Positions 29,217 through 57,692 of a DNA stretch of 64,000 bases are shown here, piece after piece. The stretch is from an uncultured Mycoplasmatota bacterium. Lineage in GTDB: Bacteria > Bacillota_I > Bacilli_A > RF39 > UBA660. The notes under the pieces are model-generated. The model had not been told where the DNA came from. It made no database searches and worked only from the letters and a program-made list of their open reading frames with translations. How positions within the stretch are numbered: position 1 is the first letter of the stretch; each line of letters opens with the position of its first letter. The stretch lies in contig CAMMMG010000001.1 of the NCBI GenBank assembly GCA_946497925.1, positions 6,192 to 70,191 of the forward strand. Reading direction: 5' to 3'. The position numbers and the translations under genes are program-made.

Positions 29217-29263
29217 ATGAATGAGCGAATAGTGACAGGTGTTGTTGTAGATGCCGGTCATGG
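29217..29263 (+). pseudogene. N-terminal fragment (15 codons) of an interrupted N-acetylmuramoyl-L-alanine amidase (Amidase_3) gene
   Basis: RBS AGAGGTG precedes ATG AAT GAG CGA ATA GTG ACA GGT GTT GTT GTA GAT GCC GGT CAT GG, giving MNERIVTGVVVDAGHG. This is the canonical Amidase_3 start (VVIDAGHGG). The frame then runs into element DNA and stops after 8 codons. Confidence 0.85.
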
Positions 29264-29375
29264 AGGAATGGGAGTATCCCAAAAATAGGGAAATGACTAT
29301 GAATACTGATAAATACAAGTAAAAGAGATACTTTAGTGAGAAAAGTGTCTTTTTTAGTGATATAATAGCTTTTAG

Positions 29376-30038
29376 GTGAGAAGTATTGTGAAAGATGAAA
29401 ATAAATATAAAACAAAGAAAGAAATTGTTAAAGAATTTGATAATATATTTAATGCATATAAATATTATCTTTATAATGAGTATAAGATTACAGATACATT
29501 TAATTATAAAAATATTTTAATAACTAGCATTTTGAATAGAAGTTTGGCTTTAATAGAGGCTTATAAAAGACTATTGCCAAGTAATAATATAATGGTTTTA
29601 AATTCTTTGATTAGACTTCAATTAGATAATTGCATTTTTGTGTATGCAATGCATATGCTAGTTGATGCTGGTTATAATATAGATGATTTGGGCGAAAATA
29701 TTATACATAAAAATAGAAAATTAAGTTCTTATAAAATAGGAAAGCAAAAAATGACAGATTTTTATTTGATAAGCAAAATTGATGAAAAATATGGGAATAA
29801 AATAAAAGAAATGTATAATTTTTATTGTAGGTTTGTTCATTTTTCTGATAGTGCTTTGATTTCTTCTTCACAATTAGTTGGTAATAATGGCTTATCAATT
29901 GGCATTACTAAAGACTATACTAGGTTTAAAAAACATATTATTGTGAATGCCAATTCATTTGTTAATTTATGCAAATTTTTGTTGATTTTGATTAGAAAAG
30001 AGTGGAAAGATATACCGAATGGTAAAAATTTAGTTTAA
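29376..30038 (+). CDS. hypothetical protein (220 aa), first gene of element 1
   Basis: GTG start after an extended -10 element TGATATAAT. No recognisable motif. Confidence 0.5.
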   Translation: MRSIVKDENKYKTKKEIVKEFDNIFNAYKYYLYNEYKITDTFNYKNILITSILNRSLALIEAYKRLLPSNNIMVLNSLIRLQLDNCIFVYAMHMLVDAGYNIDDLGENIIHKNRKLSSYKIGKQKMTDFYLISKIDEKYGNKIKEMYNFYCRFVHFSDSALISSSQLVGNNGLSIGITKDYTRFKKHIIVNANSFVNLCKFLLILIRKEWKDIPNGKNLV

Positions 30039-30039
30039 T

Positions 30040-31365
30040 ATGTTTGTTGTGAAAAATGTAAGTATGAAATTAATGATTATTAAAGTGAGGTGGATATTTA
30101 TAAATTTAAATTATGCAATATTTAGAAGTGAACCTATTTTTACATTGAATGATTTAGCACAGATAGGTTCTCATAATAAAAGGGAGAAGAAAGCTTATAA
30201 TTCTAATCCTGATATAAATAAAAATTTAAGTAAAAATAATATAGAATTAGTACCCTTGACAGATAAGTATGTTAAGGGTTTTTATAATTTAACTAAAGAA
30301 TATAAAAAAGAACATGATGAGAGAATGAAAACAGAACGTGAAGATAGAAAGAAAACTTTTAAACAGATGTTAGATAAGTCAAGAAATGTAGTTGCAGATG
30401 AATTATTATTTACTGCTACATCTGAATTTTTTGATAATATGACAATAGATGATATAAAAGAGTGGGCTAATACTTGTATGGAGTTTGTTTATGAAGATTT
30501 GGGTTATAAAAAAGAACAAGTTTTACATAGTGTAATTCATTTAGATGAAAAGACACCACATATTCATTGTGTAGTTGTTCCTTTAGTTAGAAAGTTTGAT
30601 AATAGAACTAAAACAGAGAGATATACTATATCTAAGAAACAATATATTAAAGATAATATTCATTTATCAGAATTACAAGATAAATATCATAAAAGATTAA
30701 TAGATAAAGGTTATGATTTGGAACGTGGTATTAAAGGTAGTGATAGAAAGCACATTAAGATTAAAGAATATAAGAATATTAATAAAAAATTAGAACAGAA
30801 CTTAAATACTAGAAATGAAAGATTAGATAAGGCTATGAATAAGTTAGAAGAACAAATGAAAACTACTAAAACTATTCCTTTTGATAAGAAACATATTGTT
30901 GTTGAAAAAGATACTTTTGATACTATGAATATGGTTATTATGGAAACTAAAAAGGTTAAAGAGTTACAGCCTAAAATAGAGCAAGTATTTAATGATATTG
31001 ATAGTTATGTAAATAGTTATAATTCTTTAGATAAAGAAAACAAAAAATATCAAAGAGAAATAAAGTCTCTTAAAACTAGAAATAGTAACCTTATAATAGA
31101 GAATAATAAGTTAAGAGATTATATTAATGCTATTTTGAAGGCGATAAAGACATTTTTTAGAAAGTTATTACAAATTGGTAATGAAATTACAAAAGAGAAT
31201 GTTACAAGCGAAATAAAAGACTATTATGATAATAATGACTTTAATCAAGATGATGTTTATGATATTGCTAATAATACTAGTAAAGAAGATGAACTATTTG
31301 ATTATGTAGGTATAAATTATAATGACAACTATGATATATCTAACGATGATGAATTAAGTTTATAA
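30040..31365 (+). CDS. mob: MobV-family relaxase (Mob_Pre plasmid recombination/mobilisation enzyme)
   Basis: The N-terminal block NYAIFRSEPIFTLNDLAQIGSHNKRE matches MobV motif I (SYAVxR...HNxR). HLDEKTPHIHCVVVP is the HxDE...PHxH metal-binding motif III. The C-terminus is coiled-coil. The true start is probably downstream of the track ATG. Confidence 0.8.
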   Translation: MFVVKNVSMKLMIIKVRWIFINLNYAIFRSEPIFTLNDLAQIGSHNKREKKAYNSNPDINKNLSKNNIELVPLTDKYVKGFYNLTKEYKKEHDERMKTEREDRKKTFKQMLDKSRNVVADELLFTATSEFFDNMTIDDIKEWANTCMEFVYEDLGYKKEQVLHSVIHLDEKTPHIHCVVVPLVRKFDNRTKTERYTISKKQYIKDNIHLSELQDKYHKRLIDKGYDLERGIKGSDRKHIKIKEYKNINKKLEQNLNTRNERLDKAMNKLEEQMKTTKTIPFDKKHIVVEKDTFDTMNMVIMETKKVKELQPKIEQVFNDIDSYVNSYNSLDKENKKYQREIKSLKTRNSNLIIENNKLRDYINAILKAIKTFFRKLLQIGNEITKENVTSEIKDYYDNNDFNQDDVYDIANNTSKEDELFDYVGINYNDNYDISNDDELSL

Positions 31366-31421
31366 TAAAACTAGCATGCTTTTATAGATGCTAGTTATAG
31401 AAAGTAGGATGTATATTAATT

Positions 31422-31997
31422 TTATCTACTACAATTAATTGTCTGTTTTGGTAAACAGTGATATATAACAGATAGTTTTAGAACTATCCATATGAGTACT
31501 CTTATAATATCATTATCTTTTATATTACTACTAATGCAGTAGGATTTTAAAAATGTAATTTTTATAGGTAATTCTATATTTCTATCATTAACATTAGTTA
31601 CTTTTGAATATAGATTACTTGCGATATTTTCTGCTTCTTCAATAATAGAACAATAGTCTATGTTATCTTTTAAATCGTCTTTATGAAAATTGAAAAAGTC
31701 AATTATATCATTAACTTGTTTTGATATTTCTTTTAAAGAAATTTGAGATTTAAGACTTTTTATTTCTGTTAGATAGTAGTTAATTAGTTCTTCCAAAATT
31801 AACTCTTTATCTTTTTCTTTTAAATTGTTAAATTTAGTAGTAAGTAATTTATCTAAGTAATAATGATATTCAATATCTTTAATTTTTAAGATGGTATTAT
31901 TAAAGTTATTTGTAATAGTCGATATATAGTTATTTAACTCATTATTTTTTTGCATATCTTTCCTTTCTTTTCCTACTTTCTTGGCACTATTCGTCAT
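31422..31997 (-). CDS. hypothetical protein (191 aa)
   Basis: Track ORF with an upstream RBS. No recognisable motif. Confidence 0.45.
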   Translation of the reverse strand: MTNSAKKVGKERKDMQKNNELNNYISTITNNFNNTILKIKDIEYHYYLDKLLTTKFNNLKEKDKELILEELINYYLTEIKSLKSQISLKEISKQVNDIIDFFNFHKDDLKDNIDYCSIIEEAENIASNLYSKVTNVNDRNIELPIKITFLKSYCISSNIKDNDIIRVLIWIVLKLSVIYHCLPKQTINCSR

Positions 31998-32105
31998 TTC
32001 TCTCTTTTCTTTTTTATTAATATGTAATTATAACTTACTACATAGTTAGTATGGTTTAAAGAATATAAACTTATTACAATGTTAGTAAGTTAATAAAGAA
32101 AAGAT

Positions 32106-32378
32106 GTGATGGTTATTAAGAGTAAACATTATGAGAATCAAGCTCGTAAAATATTAGCGAATAATATAGTTTATTTTAGACTTAAAAAGAATTGGTCTCA
32201 AGAAGATTTTGCAGATGAACTTGGGACTACTCCTACTTATGTTTCTAATATAGAAAATGCTAAACGTAATACGAGAATAGATTATATTGGACATATTGCT
32301 GATACTCTTGGAGTATCTTTAGAACAATTATTTGTAGAAAGAACTCCAGTTGTTAATCATCGTATTCCAAGACGATAA
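32106..32378 (+). CDS. XRE-family HTH transcriptional regulator
   Basis: WSQEDFADELGTTPTYVSNIENAKRN is an HTH_3 signature. Confidence 0.7.
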   Translation: MMVIKSKHYENQARKILANNIVYFRLKKNWSQEDFADELGTTPTYVSNIENAKRNTRIDYIGHIADTLGVSLEQLFVERTPVVNHRIPRR

Positions 32379-32513
32379 GAATATGCTATATATTCTTTTT
32401 TTGTGCCACTTTAATTATATCATTAATTATTTACTTTTCAATACATTAATTGCGCGAATATGTGGCTATTTTAAAAACTCTAAAATGTCATAATTAAATG
32501 AGAGGGTGGTAAA

Positions 32514-32822
32514 ATGGCTATTCATAGTTTTCAAGAGTTACAAGATTTATTACAAAATGTAAATAAAGAAGAAATGTATGTTAATATTTGTAGAAATATT
32601 AAGAAGTTTCGTTTAGAAAAATATAATGAATTTAAGAAACAAAACTTAAATACATCTATTAATCCATATTCTACTGAGAATATTTCAGCACTTTTAGATT
32701 ATAATCATAATCATTATAAGAGATTTGAAAGTGAGAATGATAGTACTAAGATGATACCTTTAGAAAAGCTAGTTAAATTATCTATTATTTTAGATAAAAG
32801 ATTAGATGATTTTATTAGGTAA
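32514..32822 (+). CDS. hypothetical protein (102 aa)
   Basis: RBS GAGGGTGG upstream. No recognisable motif. Confidence 0.45.
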   Translation: MAIHSFQELQDLLQNVNKEEMYVNICRNIKKFRLEKYNEFKKQNLNTSINPYSTENISALLDYNHNHYKRFESENDSTKMIPLEKLVKLSIILDKRLDDFIR

Positions 32823-32968
32823 CTATTTGTTAAAAAAAGTTTTAAAAAAAGTTTTGACTTTCAAGGAAAAAAATGGTAAGATATGCCTCGAAAAGAGGAG
32901 TATCATTAACAAATTTAAAATTACTAAAATCTTCTTTTTAATATTTTAAATGAAAAGGAGGCAATAAT

Positions 32969-33613
32969 GTGTTTGAAACGGAGGTTAGATTTTATTTTAA
33001 TAAAAATGAATCTACAAAAATTATATCTTATTTAAAGGATATAGATTCGCTTTCTTTTGATGGTAGATTTTATGAGGTAACTCAGCAATTTGATCATCCA
33101 GAAATTTCTAAGTCTTTTTATTCATTGCAAGTTGACGGCAGATTTAGAATTAGATTGTCAAAATGTGAATCGTTTAGTAAGTTAAAAGTATCATGGAAAC
33201 AGCGTTTAAAAAAAGATAAAATTGATAATAAAATTCATAAGGAAAGGGAAGTTGAAATTAATTTAAATCCAAATGAGTATAATAATTTAATGTATATATT
33301 GAATGAAGTTATTGGTATGAGACTTGTAGAGAGTTATGAAAGATATAGGAGTGTTTTTTCTAATAAAGAAGTAGAAATAGTTGTGGATGAGTATCCATTT
33401 GCTACAGCTATTGAGATTGAAAGCAAAACTGATGACTCTATATCATTAAATTGGTGGATAGACAGGTTGGGTTTAAAATTAGAAGATGCTTATAGTTTAT
33501 CTTGGGATGATAAATATAATGAATTATGTAAAGAACAAGGGAAAACAGCAACTAAGTTCGTTACATTTGAATCTGATATGCCGGAGTTAAAAAATTGTAT
33601 TTTTGGAGAGTAA
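32969..33613 (+). CDS. CYTH-domain protein (triphosphate tunnel metalloenzyme / CyaB-like)
   Basis: The N-terminal MFETEVRFYF (ExExK/R pattern) opens a ~200-aa fold with alternating charged beta-strand residues, typical of CYTH. It is the first gene of a 7-gene operon with overlapping stops and starts. Confidence 0.55.
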   Translation: MFETEVRFYFNKNESTKIISYLKDIDSLSFDGRFYEVTQQFDHPEISKSFYSLQVDGRFRIRLSKCESFSKLKVSWKQRLKKDKIDNKIHKEREVEINLNPNEYNNLMYILNEVIGMRLVESYERYRSVFSNKEVEIVVDEYPFATAIEIESKTDDSISLNWWIDRLGLKLEDAYSLSWDDKYNELCKEQGKTATKFVTFESDMPELKNCIFGE

Positions 33614-34484
33614 AATGGAAAGCATAAAGAAAATTGAAAATGGTAATCTTAATGATGTATATAAATTAGTTATAAATAATAAAAAGTATATTTTAAGAAT
33701 GACAGAATTTAATAATGATTGTGAGATAAATACATTGCTAATTTTAAAAAAATATAATTTGAACGTGCCAAATCTGTTAGCTCATTTTAGTGTTTATAAT
33801 AAAAATGTAATGTTATTAGATTATATTGAGGGAAGTAATCCTTTGGAAATTGATATTAAATTTATTACTGAACTTTTAAAACAGTTAAAAAAACTTCATA
33901 ATATTCCATATGAAGATTTGGAAGAAAAATCAATAAATACAATAGAAAATTTTGAAAGATTGAGTAAATATTATGTTGTAAGTAAAAAATCAAATTTTTT
34001 AAAGCAAAAAATTCATTTAATTAATTCGATTTTGGAAGATGTTAAAGATATACCTTTTGATAAAATGCCAAAATGTATAGTGCATTCTGACATAAAAAAA
34101 GAGAATGTACTAGTAAATAATAATACTGTTTATATAATTGATTTTGGAAATAGTTATATAGGAAATAGGCTAATAGATTTAGTTAGAATAATTATGTGGT
34201 TTTTTTTGAAAAACAATGATTTTAATATTGAAGAAATAGAAAACTGTTTTAAAGTTTATTTTGAAAATAATCATCTTATTGATTTAGAATATAATAGTCT
34301 TGGTAAAATAATAAAATTTTGTGTTATTTATAATTTAATTAAAGATGTTTATTTGTTTGAAAAAGGATTCTTATCTGAAAATTATGTTGTTAAAAATGAT
34401 ACAAAATGGTTAAATGTATTGGAAAACGAACAATTATTAGAGAAAGTAAAGGAGGCTTTAAATAATGCTAGTAGATATTCATAA
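33603..34484 (+). CDS. aminoglycoside phosphotransferase (APH)/choline kinase-like small-molecule kinase
   Basis: Catalytic loop VHSDIKKENVLV (HxDxxxxN) and IIDFGNS (a DFG-equivalent metal-binding motif). The N-terminal lobe is nucleotide-binding. Confidence 0.7.
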   Translation: MESKMESIKKIENGNLNDVYKLVINNKKYILRMTEFNNDCEINTLLILKKYNLNVPNLLAHFSVYNKNVMLLDYIEGSNPLEIDIKFITELLKQLKKLHNIPYEDLEEKSINTIENFERLSKYYVVSKKSNFLKQKIHLINSILEDVKDIPFDKMPKCIVHSDIKKENVLVNNNTVYIIDFGNSYIGNRLIDLVRIIMWFFLKNNDFNIEEIENCFKVYFENNHLIDLEYNSLGKIIKFCVIYNLIKDVYLFEKGFLSENYVVKNDTKWLNVLENEQLLEKVKEALNNASRYS

Positions 34485-35256
34485 AAATAAAGATTTAAGG
34501 AATATAGAGGTTAATAATATAGGAATTTGTGATTATAAATTGCCAATAATATTTAAAAATAAGAACAATATTTTTCCTACTATTGCAACTATTACTTCTA
34601 CAGTAGTTTTAGATAGGAACTTAAAAGGTGCTCACTTGAGTAGAATTTCTGAAGTCATTAATGATTCATTAATAAACAAAAATATTTCATTGGGTGATAT
34701 TAATGATATAACTAAAGAAGTTGCAGAAAGATCAGAAACTAAAGGTGCTAATTTAATATTATCATTCGATTTAATTAACAAAAGATTAACACCTATATCT
34801 AAAAAGGATTCTTATTTATCTTCTAAAATTACAATAATTAGTGATATTATTGATAAAAGTGTTAGTAATAAATTGATTGTAGAAACTGTTGGTACAATGC
34901 TTTGCCCATGTTCAAAAGCAATTTCTAAGTATGGTGCACATAATCAAATATGTAATTTAAAAGTTTCGTTAACAGGTAATATTGAAAGTATAGATGTTGA
35001 AAAAATTATTGATATTATGGAACATCAATTTAGTTCACCTGTTTATAGTACTGTTAAAAGAGAAGATGAGCAATACATTACTGAAAAGGCTTATGAAAAT
35101 CCTAAGTTTTCAGAAGACTTAATTAGAGATACTATAATAGCTATTCATAATTATTATTCTGTTGGAGATATAAGGGTAGAATTAGTAAACAATGAATCAA
35201 TTCATCAACATAATGTTTATTCAATGGGAGAGCTAAATGCAGATCTTAACTCATAA
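34465..35256 (+). CDS. folE2: GTP cyclohydrolase I type 2 (FolE2/MptA family)
   Basis: LKGAHLSRISEV (KGtHMSRF-like) and MLCPCSKAISKYGAHNQICNLKV (CPCS...GAHNQRS-like) are the two FolE2 signature blocks. Confidence 0.65.
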   Translation: MLVDIHKNKDLRNIEVNNIGICDYKLPIIFKNKNNIFPTIATITSTVVLDRNLKGAHLSRISEVINDSLINKNISLGDINDITKEVAERSETKGANLILSFDLINKRLTPISKKDSYLSSKITIISDIIDKSVSNKLIVETVGTMLCPCSKAISKYGAHNQICNLKVSLTGNIESIDVEKIIDIMEHQFSSPVYSTVKREDEQYITEKAYENPKFSEDLIRDTIIAIHNYYSVGDIRVELVNNESIHQHNVYSMGELNADLNS

Positions 35257-36085
35257 AGAATTGTATGACAGATATTTAATCAATGTTGGTGATGACTCTA
35301 AAAAGGAAATTAAATCTATATTAACAGCTATGGAAAAACATGGCTATTCTAGTTTAGTAAAACAAAAAATTAACATGAATGAAGAAAAGTTTTATTATTT
35401 ATATTCTTTGTTAATAAAATTAAAAGAAATATTTGATACAAGATATAACGATAGAAATGATTTAGAAATCTTTTTTGATTATGTATTACAAAGTATTGAT
35501 GGGATTCCAATTAACTTTTATGCTATTTTTTGTCCTGGTTATAATGATGATGGATACAAAGATAGGTTAGGTAAAACTACTACTATTAAAATACAAAAAC
35601 TTTTTCAAATGAAACAATTACTAGATAAGGAGAATATTTTACATAATATTCATTGTTTATATGCAGATATTTTTTTAGAGAATTGTGATGAACTTAAAAA
35701 TCCAAATTGGGAAAAGGAATTAGAGGTTAATAAAAATCTATTTAAGGAATATGCCATTAAATATTTGGAATGTGCAGATATTGATTTTTTATCAAGTTAT
35801 TTTCCTGATAGTAAATATCAGAGAGGATTTGTTGATTCTAGTATTATTAATGGTAATAATTATGAGTCATTTAGAAAATATAATAATAATTTTTATATGA
35901 AAATGGGCTGGGATGATGCTAAAGCAAAAGAACGTAATGATAAGTTATATACAATTTATAATATAATTGCTGAATATATTATCAATACAAAATCAAATGG
36001 TATTTATTTACCAATGGAGAATATGTATGCACGAACTAAAGTGTTTACTAAGAAAAAAGTAGGTTCAATGTATTTTAAATTGTAG
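35237..36085 (+). CDS. hypothetical protein (282 aa) in the cargo operon
   Basis: Translationally coupled to its neighbours by a 20-nt overlap. No recognisable motif. Confidence 0.5.
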   Translation: MQILTHKELYDRYLINVGDDSKKEIKSILTAMEKHGYSSLVKQKINMNEEKFYYLYSLLIKLKEIFDTRYNDRNDLEIFFDYVLQSIDGIPINFYAIFCPGYNDDGYKDRLGKTTTIKIQKLFQMKQLLDKENILHNIHCLYADIFLENCDELKNPNWEKELEVNKNLFKEYAIKYLECADIDFLSSYFPDSKYQRGFVDSSIINGNNYESFRKYNNNFYMKMGWDDAKAKERNDKLYTIYNIIAEYIINTKSNGIYLPMENMYARTKVFTKKKVGSMYFKL

Positions 36086-36097
36086 GGGGTAGTAAAT

Positions 36098-38110
36098 ATG
36101 AATTATAAAGAAAAAGGTAATCTGTTTTGTAAAGAAATAAATCAATTATTAGCAAATAAAAACGAATATTATGCTTTGGTTACTGGTGGTGGATTTGCTT
36201 ATGATTCTGTAAAGTATTCGGATACTATACAAGGTGATTATGATTTTATGATAGTATATAAAGATGTTGAGCAATTAGATTCTTTAATAGAGGAATTAGA
36301 AAAAATTCCATTTGATTTTGAAAAGAAATATTTAGTTTCTGATTTACATTTATTAAAAAGTAAAGTAATAGATATTATAAGATTATGTGGTAAATATCGT
36401 GGCACCAAGAGTACTATTAACTTAGTAAATATAGAGTTAATTAAAAGAATAGCAAATTTGGAAACAAGAATCCCTTTAAAGAAAATTGCCCATAATAGAA
36501 ATACTGGTTTGTTTTTTGCATATGGTTCTGATAATAGCAGAATAATTGTAAACTTTTTATCGCCATCATTTGTTAGTGGTGATGGCGAAGATCACTATAT
36601 TCATTTAGATTTCTCTAATATTATTGTAGATAATAACATTTATTTTGGTATATTAGCAGATGCTATTTTAAAAGGTTTTAATAGTAATTATGATAATATA
36701 GGTTTTAAAGAAGTGCGTCAAAAGATGATAAAAAATATTAATAACTTTTTTAAAAATAATAAAATCGATAATAGTAATTATCTAAACTTGTATGCTAACA
36801 ATATATATTTTCCAGAAAATTTAAAAAGACAATTACTTGATGAATTCAATAAATATGGTAAAAATGTTTTTGAAGAAAAAAATACTACATCTAATACAAA
36901 ATATCCAATTATTTTTGCTGTTGATAATCCAATTAATAGAAAAATGAATCCATTTAATTTTATAAATAATAAAAGTTATAGATGTTCTTTTGATGATTAT
37001 ATTAATGAAATGCAAAAAAATGAATATGATAGACAATATTTGCTAGACGCATTAGCTAAATTGTTTGGATATGTTGCTTTTTCGAATAGTAAAATAGAAG
37101 ATGATAGTTATATAGAAAATATCATATCTAAATTTAGTGTATATGGTAATAACGATTTGTATTTTGAAGGAATTGAAAAATATTCTGTTAATACTATTTT
37201 TGGTTCATTTATTAATGATTTAAAAGTAAATAGATTTAAATATAACCCTATTTTATATAAAAATTATTTGCTAATGTTGTTAAGTTTTTTGTCATTTTAT
37301 AATAATAAAAATATTTTTGATATGTCTTTAAAATATGAAGTTAATGTTCAAGAATTGGTTAAACCTGAATTAGATAATACTAAAATGAATAGTGAAGTAA
37401 TATTAAAGTTGTCTAATTTTGATGATATAGGTATGTATCATAATTATACATCAAAGGTTATGCCTGGATATACACAAACAGAATGTGATTTTTTAGAAAA
37501 AGTATTTATAGAAAAAAAAGAGCCTGTTTTAGATGTTATGTGTGGATATGGAAGAATAGCTAATGAATTAGTTAAAAGAAATTATAAAAATGTGTATGGC
37601 GTTGATTTTTCTGACTATTCTTTTTTGAATGTAGATAAGGATTTTATTTTTTCTAAAGATGATTTCTTTCATTATCGACCAGGTATATTATTTAAATATT
37701 TATATAGCTTATATAATTGTTATGAAAATAAAGAATATTTGAGAAAAGTAATTGCTAAAATGACAGAATTGTCTGCTGATAATGCTTTTGTTATTTTAGA
37801 TGTTTTTAACAAAGAATGGCGAGATAAAATAGATTCTGAATTTTATAAATTGCTTTTTGATAGTTCTCCTGTAAAATTAGAAATTAGTAGACATTATGAT
37901 GATGAAACTGGTATTGAAACAACTAAATATTTAAAAACAATGTCTGATGATGAACAAGAAGAATATAGTTTTTCTCAAAAGTTTTTTACACAGGCTGAGA
38001 TAGAGGAGTCTATAGATTATAAAAAATGGGATATAGATTTTTTAACATCTGATGTGGTTGGATCAAGAAATAATAATCAGAAAAGAATTTTGGTTTTAAA
38101 GAGGCGGTAA
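36098..38110 (+). CDS. fusion protein: N-terminal pol-beta-type nucleotidyltransferase domain plus C-terminal class I SAM-dependent methyltransferase domain
   Basis: The N-terminus VTGGGFAYDSVKYSDTIQGDYDFMIV fits hG[GS]...DhDh. The C-terminus LDVMCGYGRIANELVKRNYKNVYGVDFSD fits MTase motif I (hhDhGxGxG) plus an acidic post-I residue. Confidence 0.6.
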   Translation: MNYKEKGNLFCKEINQLLANKNEYYALVTGGGFAYDSVKYSDTIQGDYDFMIVYKDVEQLDSLIEELEKIPFDFEKKYLVSDLHLLKSKVIDIIRLCGKYRGTKSTINLVNIELIKRIANLETRIPLKKIAHNRNTGLFFAYGSDNSRIIVNFLSPSFVSGDGEDHYIHLDFSNIIVDNNIYFGILADAILKGFNSNYDNIGFKEVRQKMIKNINNFFKNNKIDNSNYLNLYANNIYFPENLKRQLLDEFNKYGKNVFEEKNTTSNTKYPIIFAVDNPINRKMNPFNFINNKSYRCSFDDYINEMQKNEYDRQYLLDALAKLFGYVAFSNSKIEDDSYIENIISKFSVYGNNDLYFEGIEKYSVNTIFGSFINDLKVNRFKYNPILYKNYLLMLLSFLSFYNNKNIFDMSLKYEVNVQELVKPELDNTKMNSEVILKLSNFDDIGMYHNYTSKVMPGYTQTECDFLEKVFIEKKEPVLDVMCGYGRIANELVKRNYKNVYGVDFSDYSFLNVDKDFIFSKDDFFHYRPGILFKYLYSLYNCYENKEYLRKVIAKMTELSADNAFVILDVFNKEWRDKIDSEFYKLLFDSSPVKLEISRHYDDETGIETTKYLKTMSDDEQEEYSFSQKFFTQAEIEESIDYKKWDIDFLTSDVVGSRNNNQKRILVLKRR

Positions 38111-38112
38111 AT

Positions 38113-38649: not shown

Positions 38650-38652
38650 GTT

Positions 38653-39591: not shown

Positions 39592-39768
39592 ATTCTATTA
39601 TAAACTAACTTTTAGACAAGTTAGTAACCCACTACGATATTGGCAGAGCCAATAACGAATGTGGGCAAAGATAGTTTCCTTTTGAAACCCCAATTAGCGA
39701 CAAATTGTGAATCGTTACAATATAATATTGTTGCATAAAAATAGCCTTATTGCTAAAAAGCAAAAAGG

Positions 39769-40362: not shown

Positions 40363-40440
40363 TAAATTACACCTCTTTTTCTTGATAAGAAAATTATAAC
40401 ATATAATGATGTAAAAATCAACAAAAAAGTAATTATGTTG

Positions 40441-40497
40441 TTGACAAACTCAATACTTAATGTTATAGTATTAGTAAATTGATGTAAAACTCATCAA
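40441..40497 (+). promoter_or_regulatory. sigma-A promoter plus palindromic operator
   Basis: TTGACA, a 17-nt spacer, then TATAGT. The perfect inverted repeat TTGATG-N7-CATCAA follows at 40479-40497, between the promoter and the RBS of the 40518 gene. Confidence 0.5.
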
Positions 40498-40517
40498 AGA
40501 AAGGAGGAAACATATGA

Positions 40518-45313: not shown

Positions 45314-45323
45314 GGTGAGATAG

Positions 45324-49415: not shown

Positions 49416-50419
49416 ATAATGAAGTAGAATTAATTAATCTATATAAGAAATTGGAATCACTTCCTAAAATTAAAAAGTGTTTGTATCCAGACAAAGAACA
49501 TTGCAAAGGAAAAATCAAAAGAGCTCATACTATACAAAATAATAAAATTTTGATAAGTGTTTCTGATAATGGGAATCTAATTGCATTAAATGGCAAAACA
49601 ACTCTAGGATTTCAAGATTATGAAAAACAAGGAAGAGGAGTAGCAAGTACTTTTTGGGGATTTTGTGATTATCATGATACTGTTGTTTTTGAACCTATTG
49701 AAAATTATGATTATGATAAATCTTTAAAACAAACATTTTTATATACATACAGAACTTTTTCGTGGCATTATTATTTAAAAGAGATGCAATTAAATAAAAA
49801 TAATTATTTACAAGAGAAAATTCCTGTTAATATGGAAAGTAATGAGTATTTTTTAGGTACTTCGCTAGGAATTAGTGATAATAAAAAATTGAAAGAAAAA
49901 TTTGATAAAGCAATTTTGAGTAATAATTATGACATAATAAAATATTATGTTTGGGAAATTCCATTTAAAATAGAGTTTTGCTGTTGTGGTATGGTGCAAT
50001 TATTTAAAGATTTACGAGGAAATGATATTAATAATTACGAGGGTTTAGCAAATATTAATAAACCAATGAAAAATCTTTTTATAAATATATTTCCAGAAAA
50101 AAATAAATCATATTGCATTTTTTCATGGATGGTTGATGATTTTGAATACGAAAATTTTACTCTTCAATTTTCAAAATTGACTTTTAAAAACAAGATAAAT
50201 TATATGAATAATATGCTACCAAAGGAAACTGATAAAATTTTTATTAATCCAAAATTATGGAATAAATGGGGAAATGGTATTCAACAGTCATTTATTGAAT
50301 GGGCAAATGTCAGTATGTTGCTTAATGCAATGCAAGCAGAATCACATAAACGAATAAAATGGAAGTATTCGTTTGTTCCATGGAATTTATTTGATTGTTC
50401 TGAAAAATTAAAGAAGTAA
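49412..50419 (+). CDS. hypothetical protein (335 aa), translationally coupled (ATGA overlap) to the giant helicase-MTase gene
   Basis: Track ORF with a 4-nt overlap with the upstream stop. No recognisable motif. Cys/His-containing, including a CCCG stretch. Confidence 0.5.
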   Translation: MNNEVELINLYKKLESLPKIKKCLYPDKEHCKGKIKRAHTIQNNKILISVSDNGNLIALNGKTTLGFQDYEKQGRGVASTFWGFCDYHDTVVFEPIENYDYDKSLKQTFLYTYRTFSWHYYLKEMQLNKNNYLQEKIPVNMESNEYFLGTSLGISDNKKLKEKFDKAILSNNYDIIKYYVWEIPFKIEFCCCGMVQLFKDLRGNDINNYEGLANINKPMKNLFINIFPEKNKSYCIFSWMVDDFEYENFTLQFSKLTFKNKINYMNNMLPKETDKIFINPKLWNKWGNGIQQSFIEWANVSMLLNAMQAESHKRIKWKYSFVPWNLFDCSEKLKK

Positions 50420-50432
50420 GAGGTGAAGTTTT

Positions 50433-52937
50433 TTGAATCAAAAATGGTTATTATGTGATTTACATATGCATTCACAATATTCAAAAATAAATAAACCAGG
50501 TGATAAAAGTAGAGTAAAAGATATGGTAGCTAGTGAATTTGTTGATATACTTAATCAGTCAGGTGTTGAATTATTTAGTATAACTGATCATAATTATTTT
50601 TCTGATGTTTACTATGATGAAATCGATAAATATATTACCGATAATGATTTAAATATGAAAATTATAAATGGTGTTGAATTAGATGCATATGTTGAATTAA
50701 AAGATGGAACAAAGGATAGTATTCATATTTGTATATATTTTTCAGATAGTACTGATAGAAAAAAGCTTAATAAAGTAATTTATTCATTATACAGAGATAA
50801 CAACGATAATATGTTAGAACCTTTATTTATGGAAATAATAAATAAATTGACTGAACTCAATACAAAGTTTATCATAATTCCTCATGGAGATAAGCATAAG
50901 GGACTATTTAAAATAATTAAAAATTTAAATAGTGAAGATGCCGTTGATTTTTATAAGTATTCAATGTATAAAATATTTAATGCATTTGATGTGAGACCAG
51001 GATTTTATAGTGTAAGCGAATCATTTTGGGCTACAAATTTTTACGAAAAAACTAAGTCATTTGATAAAATTCTGTCAAATTATGATGATGATAAATTAGA
51101 AAATTTGAAGAGTAATATTTCAAATAAAATAAAGGATGATACTTACGAGTTAACGGAAGAAGAACTGGAGATATATAGATATATATTAGATTATGGAAGT
51201 TATTTTGCATATTTCACTTTTTCTGATTGGCATAATAAAGAAGATTACAAACCAGAAATAAATAATTTCGTATTTGGAACACTTGAATATGGCTTTGAAG
51301 CAGTAGAATTAGCAACATTAGATCCTAAATCGCGAATAGAACAATCTCATGATAAATATATTGCAATTCCTTCTACATTATTAAAAAAAGTTGAATTTAA
51401 AATAAAAGATGATAAGAAAGAAATTTATTTTTCCCCTGGATTAAATGCTATTGTTGGTAAAAGAGGCAGTGGTAAGTCACTATTATTATCTGTTATAAAA
51501 AATTTAGTAGAAAAAGACGCAGAAGATGGTGCATTAAATAAGTATAAAAAGTTAGAAATTTCAGATATTATTGGACAAAATCGCGATAATATTAACATTT
51601 CTTTAGGCAGTTTAAGTTCTGTAGCGTTCTTGAATCAAGATCAAATTAAAGAGATATTTGAAAATCCAGAAAACGCACAAGAAAATATATCTAAAAATTT
51701 TAAGGAAATTAAGAATTTAAATTTAAATGATTTGATAAATATATCTGATGTAGCTAGTAAACTTAAGCCATATAATAAAAATTATAAAAATCTAACATCG
51801 AATATTATTTCAATAAAGAAAATTGATGATTATAATTTAAGTGCATATGAAGAACTTGATAATGTTAATTTTAAAAAATATTTTAGTGATAGTATTAACT
51901 CTTTGAGACTTGCCATAAATGAATTAGAAAATTTGGGATTAGATAGTAGTAAATTAGAAATAGAACTTTCTAATTTATATAAATATCAAAAATATTATTT
52001 AAAAATGATTGAATTATACAATACAATTATTAATAAGAATAATGCAGTTATTAATGATATTAATTCAAAGAAATCAGCAAATGAGATAACAATAAAGCAG
52101 AATATAAATACTATAAATAGTACGATTAAAGAATTAAAAAATAATTTTACAATCCAATTAAACTATGAAAAATTAAAATTATTAATTAACAATTTTAGTT
52201 TTGACAATCCTCCTGTTGAAGTGTCGATTAAGGGTAAATATTTATTTGTAACATATTATGATATACCTACAAATATGAGAGATATAATATTAGATAAAAT
52301 TACAGATACAATTATTCGTTCAAAAGAATTCGGAGATATTGAAAATTATCTTTCGGGTGATAAGAATAAGCAATTGAAGTCGGGAAAGAAGAATCTTTCT
52401 GAAGAATTAGATAAATATATAAAGAGTGATACATTCAAATCAAAAAAAGAATTTTATGAAATAATAGATGCATCTATTGATTATAAGAAACAAATAAGTA
52501 GTATGAACGAATTAGAAGATTACTTAAAACAAAATAAAATAAGAAATTTAACGGACGCATCACCTGGTATGAAAAGTGTAGCGTATTTGGATATGTTGTT
52601 TGATTTAGATGAGACAATTCTGATTTTAGATCAACCAGAAGATAATATAGATAATGACTATATAAGTAAATATTTAGTTCCTAATATTAAGGGTAAAAAG
52701 AAGATTAAACAATTAATATTTGTAACTCATAATCCGTCTGTTGCTGTATATGGCGATTCATTTAACTATGTGTATGTAGAAAATAACAATAAAATAAATT
52801 ACACAAATTATTTAATAGAGAGAAAAGAAGATAAGGATAAGTTGATAAATATTTTAGAAGGTGGAAAGAATAGTTTCTCAAATAGAAATAAAAAATTTGG
52901 AAATGTATTAGGAGATGAAGAATATGGAAATTATTAA
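50433..52937 (+). CDS. fusion of an N-terminal PHP-domain metal-dependent phosphoesterase/nuclease with an ABC/AAA_21-type ATPase separated by a long coiled-coil/insert
   Basis: PHP motifs are LCDLHMHSQYS and ITDHNYFS. Walker A is SPGLNAIVGKRGSGKSLL (about residue 340). Walker B/D-loop is ILILDQPEDNIDNDY (about residue 735), then FVTHNP (H-loop-like). Confidence 0.7.
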   Translation: MNQKWLLCDLHMHSQYSKINKPGDKSRVKDMVASEFVDILNQSGVELFSITDHNYFSDVYYDEIDKYITDNDLNMKIINGVELDAYVELKDGTKDSIHICIYFSDSTDRKKLNKVIYSLYRDNNDNMLEPLFMEIINKLTELNTKFIIIPHGDKHKGLFKIIKNLNSEDAVDFYKYSMYKIFNAFDVRPGFYSVSESFWATNFYEKTKSFDKILSNYDDDKLENLKSNISNKIKDDTYELTEEELEIYRYILDYGSYFAYFTFSDWHNKEDYKPEINNFVFGTLEYGFEAVELATLDPKSRIEQSHDKYIAIPSTLLKKVEFKIKDDKKEIYFSPGLNAIVGKRGSGKSLLLSVIKNLVEKDAEDGALNKYKKLEISDIIGQNRDNINISLGSLSSVAFLNQDQIKEIFENPENAQENISKNFKEIKNLNLNDLINISDVASKLKPYNKNYKNLTSNIISIKKIDDYNLSAYEELDNVNFKKYFSDSINSLRLAINELENLGLDSSKLEIELSNLYKYQKYYLKMIELYNTIINKNNAVINDINSKKSANEITIKQNINTINSTIKELKNNFTIQLNYEKLKLLINNFSFDNPPVEVSIKGKYLFVTYYDIPTNMRDIILDKITDTIIRSKEFGDIENYLSGDKNKQLKSGKKNLSEELDKYIKSDTFKSKKEFYEIIDASIDYKKQISSMNELEDYLKQNKIRNLTDASPGMKSVAYLDMLFDLDETILILDQPEDNIDNDYISKYLVPNIKGKKKIKQLIFVTHNPSVAVYGDSFNYVYVENNNKINYTNYLIERKEDKDKLINILEGGKNSFSNRNKKFGNVLGDEEYGNY

Positions 52938-53199
52938 AAAGAATGAGGCTATACAATTAGTTGAAAATCAAAAAATTATTGAGGAATATAAGTTTGATAA
53001 TGAAATTAATTTTTCAAAATTAATGGAATATTTATTATCATTAAACTTATCTAAAAAAATCACATTAGACGATAAAGTCTCTAATAAAAAATTGGAAGAA
53101 GAAAATTTGTTAAAAATAATAACTAATATTATAAATGACTACAATAATAAAACAGAGGAATTAGAGACTTTTAAGAAGGAAATAGAGAATAAAGATTAA
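52915..53199 (+). CDS. small acidic/coiled-coil protein (94 aa), overlaps the end of the PHP-ATPase gene
   Basis: Track ORF with a 23-nt overlap with the upstream gene. Possible operon member. Confidence 0.4.
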   Translation: MKNMEIIKKNEAIQLVENQKIIEEYKFDNEINFSKLMEYLLSLNLSKKITLDDKVSNKKLEEENLLKIITNIINDYNNKTEELETFKKEIENKD

Positions 53200-53454
53200 T
53201 GATATATAATAAATAGCTGATAGATAAAAATGTAGATTGTGTCCGGTGACTGTCCTAATATTTTGTGTTAAAATGATAATATAGGAAAGTTGTAAGGGGA
53301 TAGCAATAATTTGTATTTTTGCAAATTATTTTTTCTTCCACATATCCTTATTTTATAACGAATTGTGAAGCATTTAATGGAAATTGTGCCATTGCAATTC
53401 CTATTATTTTGTGGTATTATGGTAATATAGGGTAATTATAAAAAGGGGCTATTT

Positions 53455-53479
53455 GAGAGATTTTTTATCTCTCTTTTTT
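53455..53479 (+). terminator. rho-independent terminator closing the element-2 operon
   Basis: Stem GAGAGAT / ATCTCTC followed by TTTTTT. Confidence 0.5.
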
Positions 53480-53727
53480 CATGCCCATTTTTATTTTTAT
53501 CAAAAGAAAGAGGGTGAGTTATATTTTTAAAAATTGATAATGAATTTTATAAAATAGTTGAAATATTAAATGAAATTTTGATTTAAAAACTCCTAAACTG
53601 TCGGAGACTATTAGTGGGTTTTAGGGATATTCTCTAACAAGCTAGATAGGTGTGTATACACCATGCTTGATATATTGTATTATACGGATATGTAACCTCA
53701 AAATAGGATTTAATTGTAACCTAAAAT

Positions 53728-54324
53728 GTGGTAGAAAATGAAAGGAGAAATATGGAGTTTAAATCAATGGAAAAGTGGCGCGTTTTACAGAAGTTTAATA
53801 TGAGTGAAAAGCAGTATAAGAGACTAGTGAAAAGATTAGAAAGAAGACATCCTAATGAAAGATGGATTGATGAACATTTTGCTCAGAATGGTGAAAGAGT
53901 AGTATATCTAAAATTGGAACTTGTAGAATGGATAGAAGAAGTTTATTTAAATAACAATCTATTTTATTTAGATGCTGAAATTGTTTTCTTTAAAAAACAA
54001 ATATTAAGATTAGAAGACGAGCTTAATTTTCCTCATAATGAATTTGAATATAAAGATATATCTTTATATGATTTAAGAAGTTATTTTAATAGAAGTAAAA
54101 ATGTTATTGGTGTTGCAGTTAATAGAATGGAAAAAAGAAATAATCAATTATTTAAGTATTTAAAAGATGGTAAAGTAATAATTTCTAAAGAAGGCGTTAA
54201 ATGGTTAAGTGAAAACTATTTCCGTAAAGATTATTTAAAAAAACTAGAATTTTACAAATTAGAACTTCAAAATGTTAAGCGAAAACGAAATAGATTAAAA
54301 GAATATAATATTTTCTATTACTAG
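53728..54324 (+). CDS. hypothetical basic protein (198 aa) of element 2
   Basis: RBS AAAGGAGAAATATG upstream. Lys/Arg-rich. Possibly a DNA-binding or regulatory protein. Confidence 0.45.
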   Translation: MVENERRNMEFKSMEKWRVLQKFNMSEKQYKRLVKRLERRHPNERWIDEHFAQNGERVVYLKLELVEWIEEVYLNNNLFYLDAEIVFFKKQILRLEDELNFPHNEFEYKDISLYDLRSYFNRSKNVIGVAVNRMEKRNNQLFKYLKDGKVIISKEGVKWLSENYFRKDYLKKLEFYKLELQNVKRKRNRLKEYNIFYY

Positions 54325-54574
54325 ATTAGTTTGAAATATAACTAATTTTTTTATGCTCTAATTTTGATAATAAAGTCTTATAGTCGTTCTTATTTCATAA
54401 AATAAAAGGAGAGGTGTAGATTAGTGAACATAACTGAAACTTTCGATAAAGATAAAAACTTGGTTGATTTAATAGAGGAGTACTTAAAATTGATGTTAGA
54501 AAATAGTAAGCAGTAAAAGTTTGTGGTATAATGATATTGCTTATTGAAGTTATGCACATTGGAAGGAGTAGTAA

Positions 54575-56200
54575 GTGTATAACAATATAATACAAGCACC
54601 AAGTTTTTATAGAGTAGGTTTATATATCAGATTATCAGAAAGTGATGAAGATAAAACTTATGAGTCAGAGAGTGAAAGTATAATCAATCAAAGAAATTTA
54701 TTAATGGATTATGTAAAAATGAGTGGATATACTTTGGTTGATGAATATGTAGATGATGGATTTACTGGAACTAACTTTGATAGACCTTCTTTTCAAAGAT
54801 TATTAAAAGATATTGAAAGTGGTCGAATCAATTGTGTAATCACGAAAGACTTATCAAGATTAGGTAGAGATTACATTCAATGTGGTTATTATGTAGAACA
54901 ATATTTTCCACAAAAGAAAATTAGATATATTTCTATACTAGATCAAGTTGATACATTTCTAGAAAGCGCTAATAATGACATTGCTCCATTTAAAGCTTTG
55001 TTTAATGATATGACTAGTAAAGATACTTCTAAGAAGATTCGTTCAATACTAAAAAATAAAAAAGAACAAGGTAAATTTATAGGTAGTAAACCTTGTTATG
55101 GATATATGAGAGATCCACTTGATAAAGGACATTTAATACCCGATCCAGAAGTTGCTCCCGTTGTTAAAAAGATATTTAAAATGGCTCATTCTGGAACTGG
55201 AGTAAGCGACATAGTATCATACTTAAATGATAATAAGATATTAAGTCCTAGTATGTATAAAAATACTAAATCATCTTCAAGACAAAAAGTGAACGTATGG
55301 ACAATATCCTCAGTAAATAAATTATTAAAAAATAGAATGTATACAGGGGATATGGTACAAAATGTTCAAACAAAATTAAGCTATAAATCTCAAAAGAAAG
55401 TTGCTTTAGAAAAAGAGTTTTGGATAATAGTAGAAAACACTCATGAACCTCTAGTTAGTAAGACAGTATTTGAAGCAATACAAAATGCTCCTGCAAGAGT
55501 AAGAACAACTCATTGTAATAGAGAAAAAAGATTATTAGAAAATCTACTTGTATGCAAAGAATGCGGCAATTCTTTAAGTGTTCTTTATAGAAAAAATAAA
55601 AACTATAAGGATGGAAAATATTGGAGTGTTAATTGCAATAAATATGCAAGAGATCCAAGAAGACATTTGTGTTATCCACATTTCTTTCCTTATGATAAAC
55701 TAGAAGAAAAAATAATGAGTGTTATTAAAACTACTTGTCAAAAATATTTAGATAGTTTAAATATCAAAGAGTTATCTGAAAGAGTATTACAAGATAGAAC
55801 AAAGGAAAAGAATGATAGGCAAAAGGAAAAGCAACAATTATTAAATGAGATTGATGAATTAAAAAGAAAATCTGATGCTTTATATGATGACAAATTTAAT
55901 GGGATAATAAGTGTTGGTACTTATACAAGAATCTCTACGCAAACTGAAAAACAAATATCAGCCTTAAATTATAGAATTTATGAAATAGATAATGAAGAAA
56001 ATCAGATTAAAGAAGATACAAAAGAAATAGCTAAACATGAAGAACAAATAAAATCACTTTTAAATTTAGATGAACCCAACAGAGAACTCATAAAAACTTT
56101 AGTAAAAAATATTTATATTGATAAAGATAGAAATATAGAAATTCAATACAGATTTAAGATGCTAGATGATATAAAAACTAATTATGAAGAAATAAATTAA
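54575..56200 (+). CDS. large serine recombinase (element 2 integrase)
   Basis: YRVGLYIRLSESDEDK is the resolvase catalytic domain. A recombinase domain, a zinc ribbon (CKECGNS...CNKYAR) and a coiled coil follow. It is about 40% identical to the element-1 recombinase. Confidence 0.9.
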   Translation: MYNNIIQAPSFYRVGLYIRLSESDEDKTYESESESIINQRNLLMDYVKMSGYTLVDEYVDDGFTGTNFDRPSFQRLLKDIESGRINCVITKDLSRLGRDYIQCGYYVEQYFPQKKIRYISILDQVDTFLESANNDIAPFKALFNDMTSKDTSKKIRSILKNKKEQGKFIGSKPCYGYMRDPLDKGHLIPDPEVAPVVKKIFKMAHSGTGVSDIVSYLNDNKILSPSMYKNTKSSSRQKVNVWTISSVNKLLKNRMYTGDMVQNVQTKLSYKSQKKVALEKEFWIIVENTHEPLVSKTVFEAIQNAPARVRTTHCNREKRLLENLLVCKECGNSLSVLYRKNKNYKDGKYWSVNCNKYARDPRRHLCYPHFFPYDKLEEKIMSVIKTTCQKYLDSLNIKELSERVLQDRTKEKNDRQKEKQQLLNEIDELKRKSDALYDDKFNGIISVGTYTRISTQTEKQISALNYRIYEIDNEENQIKEDTKEIAKHEEQIKSLLNLDEPNRELIKTLVKNIYIDKDRNIEIQYRFKMLDDIKTNYEEIN

Positions 56201-56332
56201 GTAATGAAAATAGGGTGGTAAAATTTGTTAATCACACAATCTCACCATCCCCTATACTATTTTTAGAAAAAATGAAAATGCAGTAAAATCAAGGAAAAAT
56301 GATAGCCTAATCACATAAAATCTTTCCGGAGG

Positions 56333-57692
56333 TGGAGAAGGTGCAGAAGTTATTTATGCTTTACGTAATAATTCTACTTTAGCTCAGTCTATCTTAGAAG
56401 AGATAGGTAGTGAAGGGCAAATTATGCGTAAGTATTATCAAAGAAGACTTCCTGAAGATCCATCTAAAGACTATTATTATATTATTAGAGAGACTGCTCC
56501 TATGCAATCATTACTTGTAGAATATGGATTTATTGATAATGCTAATGATAGGGTTAAGTTGCAAAATGATTTATTAAATTATGTAGAAGCAGTTGTTAGA
56601 GCGATTGCAGGGTATGCTGGTGTTCCTTATACTCCACCTGAAGGAAGTGGTACTAACTTTTATACTGTAGTTAAAGGTGATAGCCTTTGGAGTATAGCTC
56701 GTAAATTTGGTGTTACAGTACAGGCTTTGAGAGATGCTAATAACTTAAAAAGTGATACTCTTACTGTTGGTCAACTTCTTAGAATTCCTACTAGTGGTGG
56801 TACTGATAATGGAACTGGTGGTAATGTTACTTATACTGTGCAAAGAGGAGATAGTCTATGGAGTATTGCAAGTCGTTATGGAATAAGTGTTAATGATTTA
56901 AGACGTGCTAACAATTTAACTAGTGATACTCTTAGTATAGGACAAGTTTTAATTATTCCTGGTGTTGGTAATGGTAATGAGGGTAATGATAATATAACAG
57001 GACCTTCTACTACCTATACAGTACAAAGAGGAGATAGTTTATGGAGTATTGGTAATAGATTTGGTGTAACAGTTCAACAACTTAGGGATGCTAATAATTT
57101 AACAAGTGATGTTTTAAGTGTAGGACAAGTCTTAACTATTCCTGGTGTTAGTGGAGATGAAGATACTGGTGATAATAATGGAACAGTATTCTATTACACA
57201 GTAGAACGAGGAGATAGTCTTTGGAGTATAGCAAGACGTTTTGGTGTTACGGTACAAGAAATAAGAGATGCTAATGATTTAGTTAGTGATACTTTAAGTG
57301 TTGGACAATCTTTAATAATCCCTGGTCTTAGTGCAGATGAAGACTTAGAAGATGATAATAATAATGAAACTACTCCTTCTACTTATACTGTACAATCAGG
57401 TGACAGTCTATGGAGTATTGCTAATAAATTCGGTATTACTGTCAATGACTTAAAGAATGCTAATGGATTAACATCTAATCTTCTTTCTATAGGACAAGTA
57501 CTAATTATTCCTAATTCTAATACTAATAATCCAACTAATCCTAGTTATACAACCTACACAGTACAAAGAGGAGATAGTCTTTGGAGTATAGCTAATAACT
57601 TTGGTGTTACTGTTGATGCTATTAAGACGTTAAACAATTTGACATCTAATTTACTTTCTGTTGGTCAAGTATTACAAATACCTAATAATTGA
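56333..57692 (+). pseudogene. C-terminal part of the interrupted N-acetylmuramoyl-L-alanine amidase: end of the Amidase_3 domain plus six LysM repeats (track ORF 56424..57692 is the portion from an internal ATG)
   Basis: In frame from 56333: GGEGAEVIYALRNNSTLAQSILEEIGSEGQIMRKYYQRRLPEDPSKDYYYIIRETAPMQSLLVEYGFIDNANDRVKLQNDL. This is the Amidase_3 C-terminal block (vLrettmPAvLvElGFisN). Six YTVxxGDSLWSIAxxFGVTVxxLxxxNxL repeats follow, which are LysM. Confidence 0.85.

Follow-up and report, generated by a model that had tools for sequence, protein, structure and literature searches.

The 64,000-nt window analysed here (contig CAMMMG010000001.1, positions 6,192 to 70,191, from an uncultured Mycoplasmatota bacterium) contains a gene for an N-acetylmuramoyl-L-alanine amidase that is divided into three fragments by two inserted elements, in a region with a GC content of ~25%. 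When the three fragments are joined in frame, the encoded protein covers positions 1-172 of the 174 positions of Amidase_3 (Pfam) and carries six LysM repeats, and this rebuilt amidase is 92% identical to two intact proteins, P0241 and P0242, across the full catalytic domain. The genes of P0241 and P0242 (L100 and L101; L numbers denote the related loci used for comparison) have both predicted attachment sites, attB1 and attB2, uninterrupted, and the intact sites in L101 read gatgctggaCATGGTGGTGCTGAT and aatgctGGAGGTGGAGAAGGT. The two attB sequences reconstructed in a preliminary description of this DNA are thus found whole in intact relatives. The amidase itself is truncated by the insertions. 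A TTG-started open reading frame (ORF) at 43241-43561, which overlaps the int1 stop and reads across attR1 into the middle amidase fragment (MNFRIIFNIWDFLLPSHGG...), was considered as a surrogate N-terminus, and restoration of the gene by this frame was rejected because the frame is closed by a stop in L005 and L007, between one and five codons ahead of the His codon. The frame is not conserved in the relatives and is probably meaningless.

Each element encodes a large serine recombinase (LSR). Int1 of element 1 matches PF00239 (E 9.6e-23), PF07508, PF13408 (Zn_ribbon_recom), and PF14287 (DUF4368, E 7.2e-6), and Int2 of element 2 matches PF00239 (E 2.4e-19), PF07508, and PF13408, confirming the two recombinase ORFs with Resolvase, Recombinase, and zinc-ribbon domains that had been described previously. 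The serine-nucleophile motif Y-x-R-L-S is visible in both proteins, as VGVYCRLSDED in Int1 and VGLYIRLSESD in Int2. DUF4368 is undetected in Int2 at E <= 1e-3; nonetheless, the alignment of Int2 with TndX, the recombinase of Tn5397, extends to the C-terminus. The coordinates of these features and of those described below are collected in the table.

Table. Features of the interrupted amidase locus and of related loci. Positions are those of the window unless a locus is named.
Feature	Position	Strand	Description and basis
Amidase gene, N-terminal fragment	29217..29260	+	MNERIVTGVVVDAG and CA of the His codon; direct reading; rebuilt protein compared with Amidase_3
attL1 central dinucleotide CA (element 1 crossover)	29259..29260	+	attP1 dyad; L002/L036 junctions; reversed L004/L009
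Element 1	29261..43288	+	14,030 bp centre to centre; mobilisable island; boundaries from attL1 and attR1; Pfam
Mob_Pre relaxase of element 1	30040..31365	+	PF01076, E 9.6e-28
Int1, large serine recombinase, 531 aa	41656..43251	+	Resolvase, Recombinase, Zn ribbon, DUF4368 (Pfam)
attP1-derived left arm in attR1	43265..43290	+	TTGGGAC, 15 nt, CA; kept in relatives
Amidase gene, middle fragment	43289..43518	+	HGGADPGAV...ISNHINAGG
attL2 central dinucleotide GG (element 2 crossover)	43517..43518	+	attP2 dyad; related loci; L092 block
Element 2	43519..56330	+	12,814 bp centre to centre; defence island; PADLOC and Pfam
Restriction-modification cargo of element 2	44342..49415	+	MTase_II, 323 aa (PADLOC PDLC03390, E 4e-122); REase_MTase_IIG, 1363 aa (PDLC03626, 1506 bits)
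Int2, large serine recombinase, 541 aa	54575..56200	+	Resolvase, Recombinase, Zn ribbon (Pfam)
attP2-derived left arm in attR2	56305..56332	+	AATCACATAA, aatctttccgga, GG; kept in 14 related loci
Amidase gene, C-terminal fragment	56331..57692	+	Remaining catalytic domain and six LysM repeats
Decoy site in M18 aminopeptidase gene	20518..20539	+	agatgccggtGGtggtggtact (VDAGGGGT); 19/20 attB1 arm identity, GG centre, empty; outside both elements, natural negative control for targeting by core sequence
Predicted attP circle junctions after excision			ttccttcaCAtggaggaat and ctttccggaGGacaggacg
Third-lineage insertion, L081	L081 12245-12260 and 15625-15640; integrase 14051-15616		Small element; 521-aa integrase, 40% identical to Int2
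Third-lineage insertion, L003	L003 ~3600-3615; integrase fragment 8714-9226		55% identical to Int2

The two junctions of element 1 share the block CATGG (29259-63 and 43289-93), and those of element 2 share GGAGG (43514-18 and 56328-32). Within these blocks, the crossovers fall on the CA of the His codon (DAG-H-GG) for element 1 and on the GG of the second Gly codon (NAG-G-GE) for element 2. The CA is assigned as the crossover of element 1 because three observations converge on it. First, joining the two ends of element 1 yields an attP1 whose arms form an imperfect inverted repeat with 16/24 matches around the CA of CATGG, and only 2e-4 of the window positions are as good. Second, the host His codon in L002 and L036 is CAC and the junction reads ttcaCAcggggg, leaving CA as the only bases common to attP and attB. 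Third, the elements in L004 and L009, whose integrases are 72% identical to Int1, adjoin the N-terminal amidase fragment in reverse, and at an unchanged distance from the outer TCGGGAT they have TG, complementary to CA. The junction in L004 and L009 lies at ~11605-11650, just 3' of the integrase stop, and shows the inverted attP core ccacca-TG. In these two naturally occurring loci, the orientation of insertion follows the central dinucleotide, as expected of serine integrases. TTGGGAY-N15-CA is conserved in L001, L002, L003, L005, L007, L008, and L036, and the corresponding motif in L006 is TTGGAC-N16. The preliminary description had placed both crossovers at GG|TGG on Gly-Gly codons; this stands for element 2, where GG precedes TGG, but not for element 1, the true centre of which lies 3 bp to the left, in a His codon.

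The rebuilt attP2 is likewise a dyad, with 15/24 matches around the last GG of GGAGG, a level reached at 1.1e-3 of the window positions. Across 14 related loci, the bases left of the GG follow the integrase lineage (ccgga, cccgg, ccaga, cccga, and tctgga), and the bases to its right follow the host (tgg or cgg, and onward). The junction identity block in L092 is GGTGGA, the overlap of which with the GGAGG of the window is GG alone. The left arm of attR2 has the consensus taatcacataWWWtYYttYYnga-GG in the 14 loci and mirrors TTATGTG at 43531-43537, 12 nt right of the GG in attL2. The outer motifs can be written as TTGGGAY-N15-CA/TG-N15-RTCCCAA for attP1 and CACATAA-N12-GG-N12-TTATGTG for attP2, and the inner attP arms differ even within the Int2 family (left arms ccgga, cccgg, ccaga, and cccga; right arms acagga and tggaac). 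Both systems therefore have the attP organization of a large serine recombinase, an imperfect inverted repeat around a non-palindromic 2-bp crossover common to attP and attB, with no further target duplication, and the gene rejoins in frame. The arms of attP1 and attP2 match each other at 7/24 positions, a level reached by 35% of the window positions, and the two attP sites are unrelated. Because the central dinucleotides differ (CA versus GG), the sites are not exchangeable.

The insertion sites recur in other hosts. All 11 Int1 relatives at >=67% identity, comprising the window, L001, L002, L003, L005, L006, L007, L008, and L036 together with the reversed L004 and L009, occupy the GHGG His codon. 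The amidases concerned share 28-93% identity with that of the window, and the codon is hit even in amidases of 28-54% identity. Int2 relatives at >=80% identity, of which at least 120 were found in the protein search, occupy NAGG|GE in 15 of the 16 readable flanks, the exception being L093; more distant Int2 relatives were seen incidentally as second integrases in other loci. Among the loci examined, site 1 never holds an Int2-type element and site 2 never holds one of the Int1 type, and neither the Int1 clade nor the Int2 clade inserts into many unrelated targets. The recurrence of Amidase_3 motif codons, which the preliminary description had proposed to check, is thus borne out for each lineage separately. 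Each lineage is strictly site-specific across hosts, since its attB lies on the codons of a conserved catalytic motif.

Occupancy of the two sites varies among close relatives. The closest public genome is a metagenome-assembled genome (MAG) of Candidatus Onthousia excrementipullorum (L001), in which Int1 is 99% identical and only the first insertion is present, site 2 being intact. Site 1 is filled and site 2 empty in L001, L003, and L036, site 2 alone is filled in L092, both are occupied in L007, and neither is occupied in L100 and L101. Such polymorphic occupancy (none, either, or both) points to recent mobility, and the elements are probably still mobile.

Two of these loci show additional features. 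In L093 (1884-2000), an Int2 relative (81% identity) is followed by the junction ttctggaGGtggtgag and then by non-amidase sequence. This non-amidase flank and the site-2 element of L007 have gtattaagacggctRtatttaRac in common, and a tandem or nested insertion is possible. L007 carries two amidase paralogs on one contig (1-60 and 5092-5330). Paralog one has an Int1 relative at site 1 and, at site 2, an element with a different attP arm, gcagga-GG-acatacttagctc, and paralog two starts exactly at CATGG, at the contig start. Such a contig start suggests that the assembly broke where the element occurs a second time, and thus that several paralogs are targeted.

The two integrases are only distantly related. 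Int1 and Int2 are 33% identical (257 bits, E 2e-83; BLASTP), less than the approximately 40% estimated previously, and full-length alignments with TndX give 33% identity and 271 bits for Int2 and 32% identity and 265 bits for Int1. Judged by these alignments, Int1, Int2, and TndX are equidistant from one another. In the Protein Data Bank (PDB), both integrases have their best match in 2mhc, the catalytic domain of TnpX (E 1.5e-30 for Int2). Lineages that are 41-49% identical to Int1, and thus nearer to it than Int2 is, use non-amidase targets, so that homologous recombinases do sit at unrelated sequences, an outcome that the preliminary description had named as speaking against its own proposal of a shared target specificity. 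In a neighbour-joining (NJ) tree, the lineages found in ABC ATPase, Mn-catalase, and P-loop ATPase genes fall between the Int1 and Int2 clades. Int1 and Int2 are newly described members of the TnpX/TndX-like group whose att sites are new and well defined; they do not constitute a new kind of system.

The targets of these other lineages are themselves of several types. Relatives 45-49% identical to Int1 are found in ABC-transporter ATPase genes, at the codons of the LSGG-x-x-QRV signature, in reverse orientation in L011, L013, L016, L017, L032, and L033 and in forward orientation in L012, L023, L025, L028, L029, and L037. Elements in one orientation have their junction at the CA of the Gln codon, whereas for those in the opposite orientation it lies ~8 bp beyond this CA, which may reflect two attB registers or two sub-lineages. 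Relatives 41-43% identical to Int1 are found in an Mn-catalase (CotJC-like) gene, in P-loop ATPase genes (Clostridium and Caloramator), or beside small genes. In L069, L073, L077, and also L054, the Int1-like element lies in the Mn-catalase gene at Y-Y-T-D-H-G (gatCATGG), and a second, Int2-like integrase gene is located just upstream of the start codon at the Mn-catalase loci, making this another gene targeted by two lineages. L034, L035, L044, and others (41-43%) flank a small gene, MADVKQRMIDIVNSVPEDYFDGLEPTEMV..., with, in most of these loci, a promoter-like stretch and the first ~25 codons after the integrase; in L051 the flank begins inside this small gene. It is possible that the element brings along a new 5' end for the gene that it targets.

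The resemblance between the two chromosomal sites has to be read with their coding content in mind. On the true centres, attB1 (gatgccggt CA tggtggtgct) and attB2 (aatgctgga GG tggagaaggt) match at 13/20 arm positions (15/24), and both encode [D/N]-A-G-x-G-[G/E] with the crossover at codon positions 1-2 of the fourth codon. A whole-window control, in which ~5e-4 of the positions reach 13/20, was superseded since it is blind to codon periodicity and Gly richness. In the in-frame control that replaced it, 39/10,906 positions in long ORFs (0.36%) reach this level, and 7 of them lie within the ~190-codon amidase catalytic domain (~3.7%). The preliminary description had called the two targets near-identical; the arms are indeed similar, but the codon-aware control and the differing centres show that this was overstated. 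Because the decoy site in the M18 aminopeptidase gene, which matches the attB1 arms better than attB2 does, is empty, core similarity is neither necessary nor sufficient for target use. The likeness of the attB cores (ATGCnGGn-NN-TGGnG) would stem from the [D/N]-A-G-x-G-[G/E] codons of a glycine-rich gene and not from a common recognition code.

The positions that seem to count for recognition lie instead in the outer parts of the sites, which differ in the side on which attB mirrors attP. In the left half of attB2, AATCATATAA (NHIN codons) lies 8 nt from the centre and mirrors the attP2 motif at 12 nt, and in the right half of attB1, GATCC lies 11 nt from the centre and mirrors the ATCCCAA at 15 nt in attP1. 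We infer that recognition by Int1 depends chiefly on the right half of attB1 (TGGnGG ... GATCC, HGGxDP codons) and recognition by Int2 chiefly on the left half of attB2 (AATCATATAA, NHIN codons). In both systems, the outer motif is 4 bp nearer the centre in attB than in attP, a shift close to the offset of the zinc-ribbon motif in serine integrases.

The same amidase gene is cut again in L081 and L003, within a LysM repeat (YTVKSG|D), by a third integrase lineage. The third attP reads cataaaaattgtatca-GG-tgatacgatttttattg, forms a dyad with 16/22 matches around a GG centre, and has the outer motif ACATAAAA in common with attP2. The LysM repeats offer several candidate copies of the S-G-D target per gene. 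The LysM-amidase gene is thus a landing place used repeatedly by several integrase lineages.

Taken together, these results are best explained by two independent islands that entered the same LysM-amidase gene through ordinary large-serine-recombinase attP x attB recombination with separate specificities, a reading to which we assign a probability of about 80%. Element 1, a Tn4451-like mobilisable island, would have entered when Int1 exchanged strands within the catalytic His codon of D-A-G-H-G-G, at its CA, and element 2, a restriction/defence island, when Int2 did so within the second Gly codon of N-A-G-G-G-E, at its GG, with Int1 and Int2 belonging to different TnpX/TndX-like branches and reading different DNA. 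Several points weigh against this reading. The 13/20 (15/24) match of the attB sites, obtained in an independently fixed register, is still uncommon at the frequencies given above for the long ORFs and the amidase domain, and it is possible that similar inner-site preferences contribute to it. Few attP-right arms underlie the half-site assignments: a single one for Int1 and two, from the window and L092, for Int2. The NJ tree is crude and has no bootstrap, L028 and L063 entered it as very short peptides, and the topology is carried mainly by the pairwise identities. Finally, neither excised circles nor genes for recombination directionality factors (RDFs) were identified, and current mobility is read from polymorphic occupancy alone.

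An alternative that we consider possible but rather unlikely is selection on the target gene. The LysM-amidase would then be a favoured landing pad, either because the loss or switching of an autolysin is harmless or useful or because regulated excision restores the gene, as for intervening elements of the comK or sigK type, and the similarity of the attB cores would be a by-product. Such selection would fit the use of three sites in one gene by three lineages, the third site being LysM S-G-D with a GG centre (L081 and L003), as well as the filling of both site 1 and site 2 in L007 and the presence of related lineages in the Mn-catalase (CotJC-like) gene. It would also agree with the common convergence of distant LSRs on the same genes (PMC10083194) and with the preference of TndX for Fic-domain-coding DNA (PMC4430133). 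However, the coexistence of intact and interrupted alleles is equally compatible with neutral polymorphism, and the junctions fail to rebuild the reading frame, with stops just upstream of the His codon in L005 and L007. A stronger form of this alternative seems more doubtful still: the gene would be a dedicated landing pad for at least three lineages (GHGG, NAGGGE, and LysM S-G-D), interruption of the autolysin or its restoration by excision would be functional, and the similar attB cores would reflect a convergent inner-site preference of unrelated integrases. If true, it would imply a possible reversible autolysin switch, or protection of the island-carrying cells.

The proposal of the preliminary description, that a single recombinase family has inherited a specificity for GGxGG-type glycine codons of Amidase_3 and so finds two or more sites per gene, appears improbable. 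Both sites do lie in one gene on [D/N]-A-G-x-G-[G/E] codons, with the central dinucleotide at the same codon positions and arms that match at 13/20, and both integrases are TnpX-like. But the identity between Int1 and Int2 is no higher than their identity to TndX, closer relatives of Int1 use unrelated targets and fall between the two clades, the centres differ, the attP sites are unrelated, each lineage keeps strictly to one site, and the better-matching decoy is empty. What survives of the proposal is that each lineage, taken by itself, targets Amidase_3 motif codons; a common GGxGG specificity does not. That the tripartite gene is an artefact of chimeric joining of metagenomic contigs at short repeats is very improbable, for although the source is probably a MAG and the junction repeats are 2-5 bp long, at least 8 independent assemblies have this attR1 junction and at least 14 have this attR2 junction, significant attP dyads arise only on joining both ends, and the gene fragments rejoin in frame.

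The cargo of the two elements is also distinct. Element 1 combines an integrase and a relaxase without a conjugation apparatus (Mob_Pre is present and no transfer genes were seen), and its other genes include helix-turn-helix (HTH) regulators. An operon-like cluster at 32969-39591 encodes a CYTH protein, an APH-like kinase, a FolE2 GTP cyclohydrolase, and a 282-aa protein of no recognised family, as well as a 670-aa protein that gives a weak methyltransferase signal, a dNMP-kinase-like (deoxynucleoside monophosphate kinase-like) protein, and a queuosine-salvage (Q_salvage) protein. This unusual cluster matches no PADLOC system and may represent a mobile nucleotide or 7-deazapurine-related pathway. 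The defence cargo of element 2 (44342-52937) consists of a type II methyltransferase, a type IIG enzyme (ResIII and Eco57I), an unknown 335-aa protein, and an 834-aa Ppl-like PHP/ATPase. Unlike a Tn4451-like mobilisable element, element 2 shows no relaxase among its Pfam and PADLOC matches. A scan of viral contigs with Int2 gave no relatives and hence no sign that element 2 is a phage, and none of the relatives found by BLAST in phages and plasmids exceeded 38% identity, with no annotated close relative among them.

The locus provides two natural pairs of serine integrase and att sites, or three with the LysM-site integrase, with the crossovers CA, GG, and GG. In addition, tens of orthologs together with natural attB variants provide raw material for studying how attB and attP are read. 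No new targeting principle is revealed, and the idea of two sites read by one specificity fails.

Serine-integrase elements are known to interrupt genes, as A118 does in comK, SPbeta in spsM, and skin in sigK. The elements described here resemble them in that an LSR element splits a coding sequence and precise excision would rebuild the frame; they differ in their host, an uncultured gut bacterium of the class Bacilli, and in junction ORFs that do not restore the gene. A second resemblance is to Tn4451/Tn4453 of clostridia, in which Tn4451 pairs TnpX with the TnpZ relaxase, and TnpX exchanges at GA and inserts at sites resembling the transposon ends. The TnpX domain 2mhc is the best structure match, and element 1 likewise joins a large serine recombinase with Mob_Pre. 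In contrast, the targets here are fixed gene motifs, the cargo consists of nucleotide-metabolism and defence genes, and no oriT was identified.

Convergence of many distantly related LSRs on one gene cluster, or even on a single conserved site, is documented, with a Mg-chelatase-like gene and a prolyl isomerase among the examples, and DUF4368 has been linked to multi-targeting LSRs (Durrant et al., 2022, PMC10083194). The convergence of two lineages here, and of three elsewhere, on one amidase gene follows this pattern; in contrast to it, the lineages here use different sites within the gene, and Int1 carries DUF4368 yet acts in a site-specific manner. Amidase_3 is unmentioned in that study, and our literature search gave no report of Amidase_3 as an LSR target.

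The nearest precedent is TndX of Tn5397, which prefers DNA coding for the Fic domain, has GA as its central dinucleotide, and inserts promiscuously when the preferred site is missing (PMC4430133). Int1 and Int2 share with TndX the 32-33% full-length identity, the C-terminal DUF4368 in the case of Int1, and entry into DNA that codes for a conserved domain, Fic there and an Amidase_3 motif here. They differ from it in their centres (CA for Int1 and GG for Int2, versus GA), in the site fidelity of their orthologs (11/11 and 15/16), which contrasts with the promiscuity of TndX, and in cargo that lacks a Tn916-like conjugation module. In uncultured gut Bacilli, TnpX/TndX-like integrases anchor cargo and defence islands on codons belonging to conserved catalytic motifs, namely, Amidase_3 GHGG, ABC LSGG-QRV, Mn-catalase, and LysM, which extends the precedent set by TndX and Fic.

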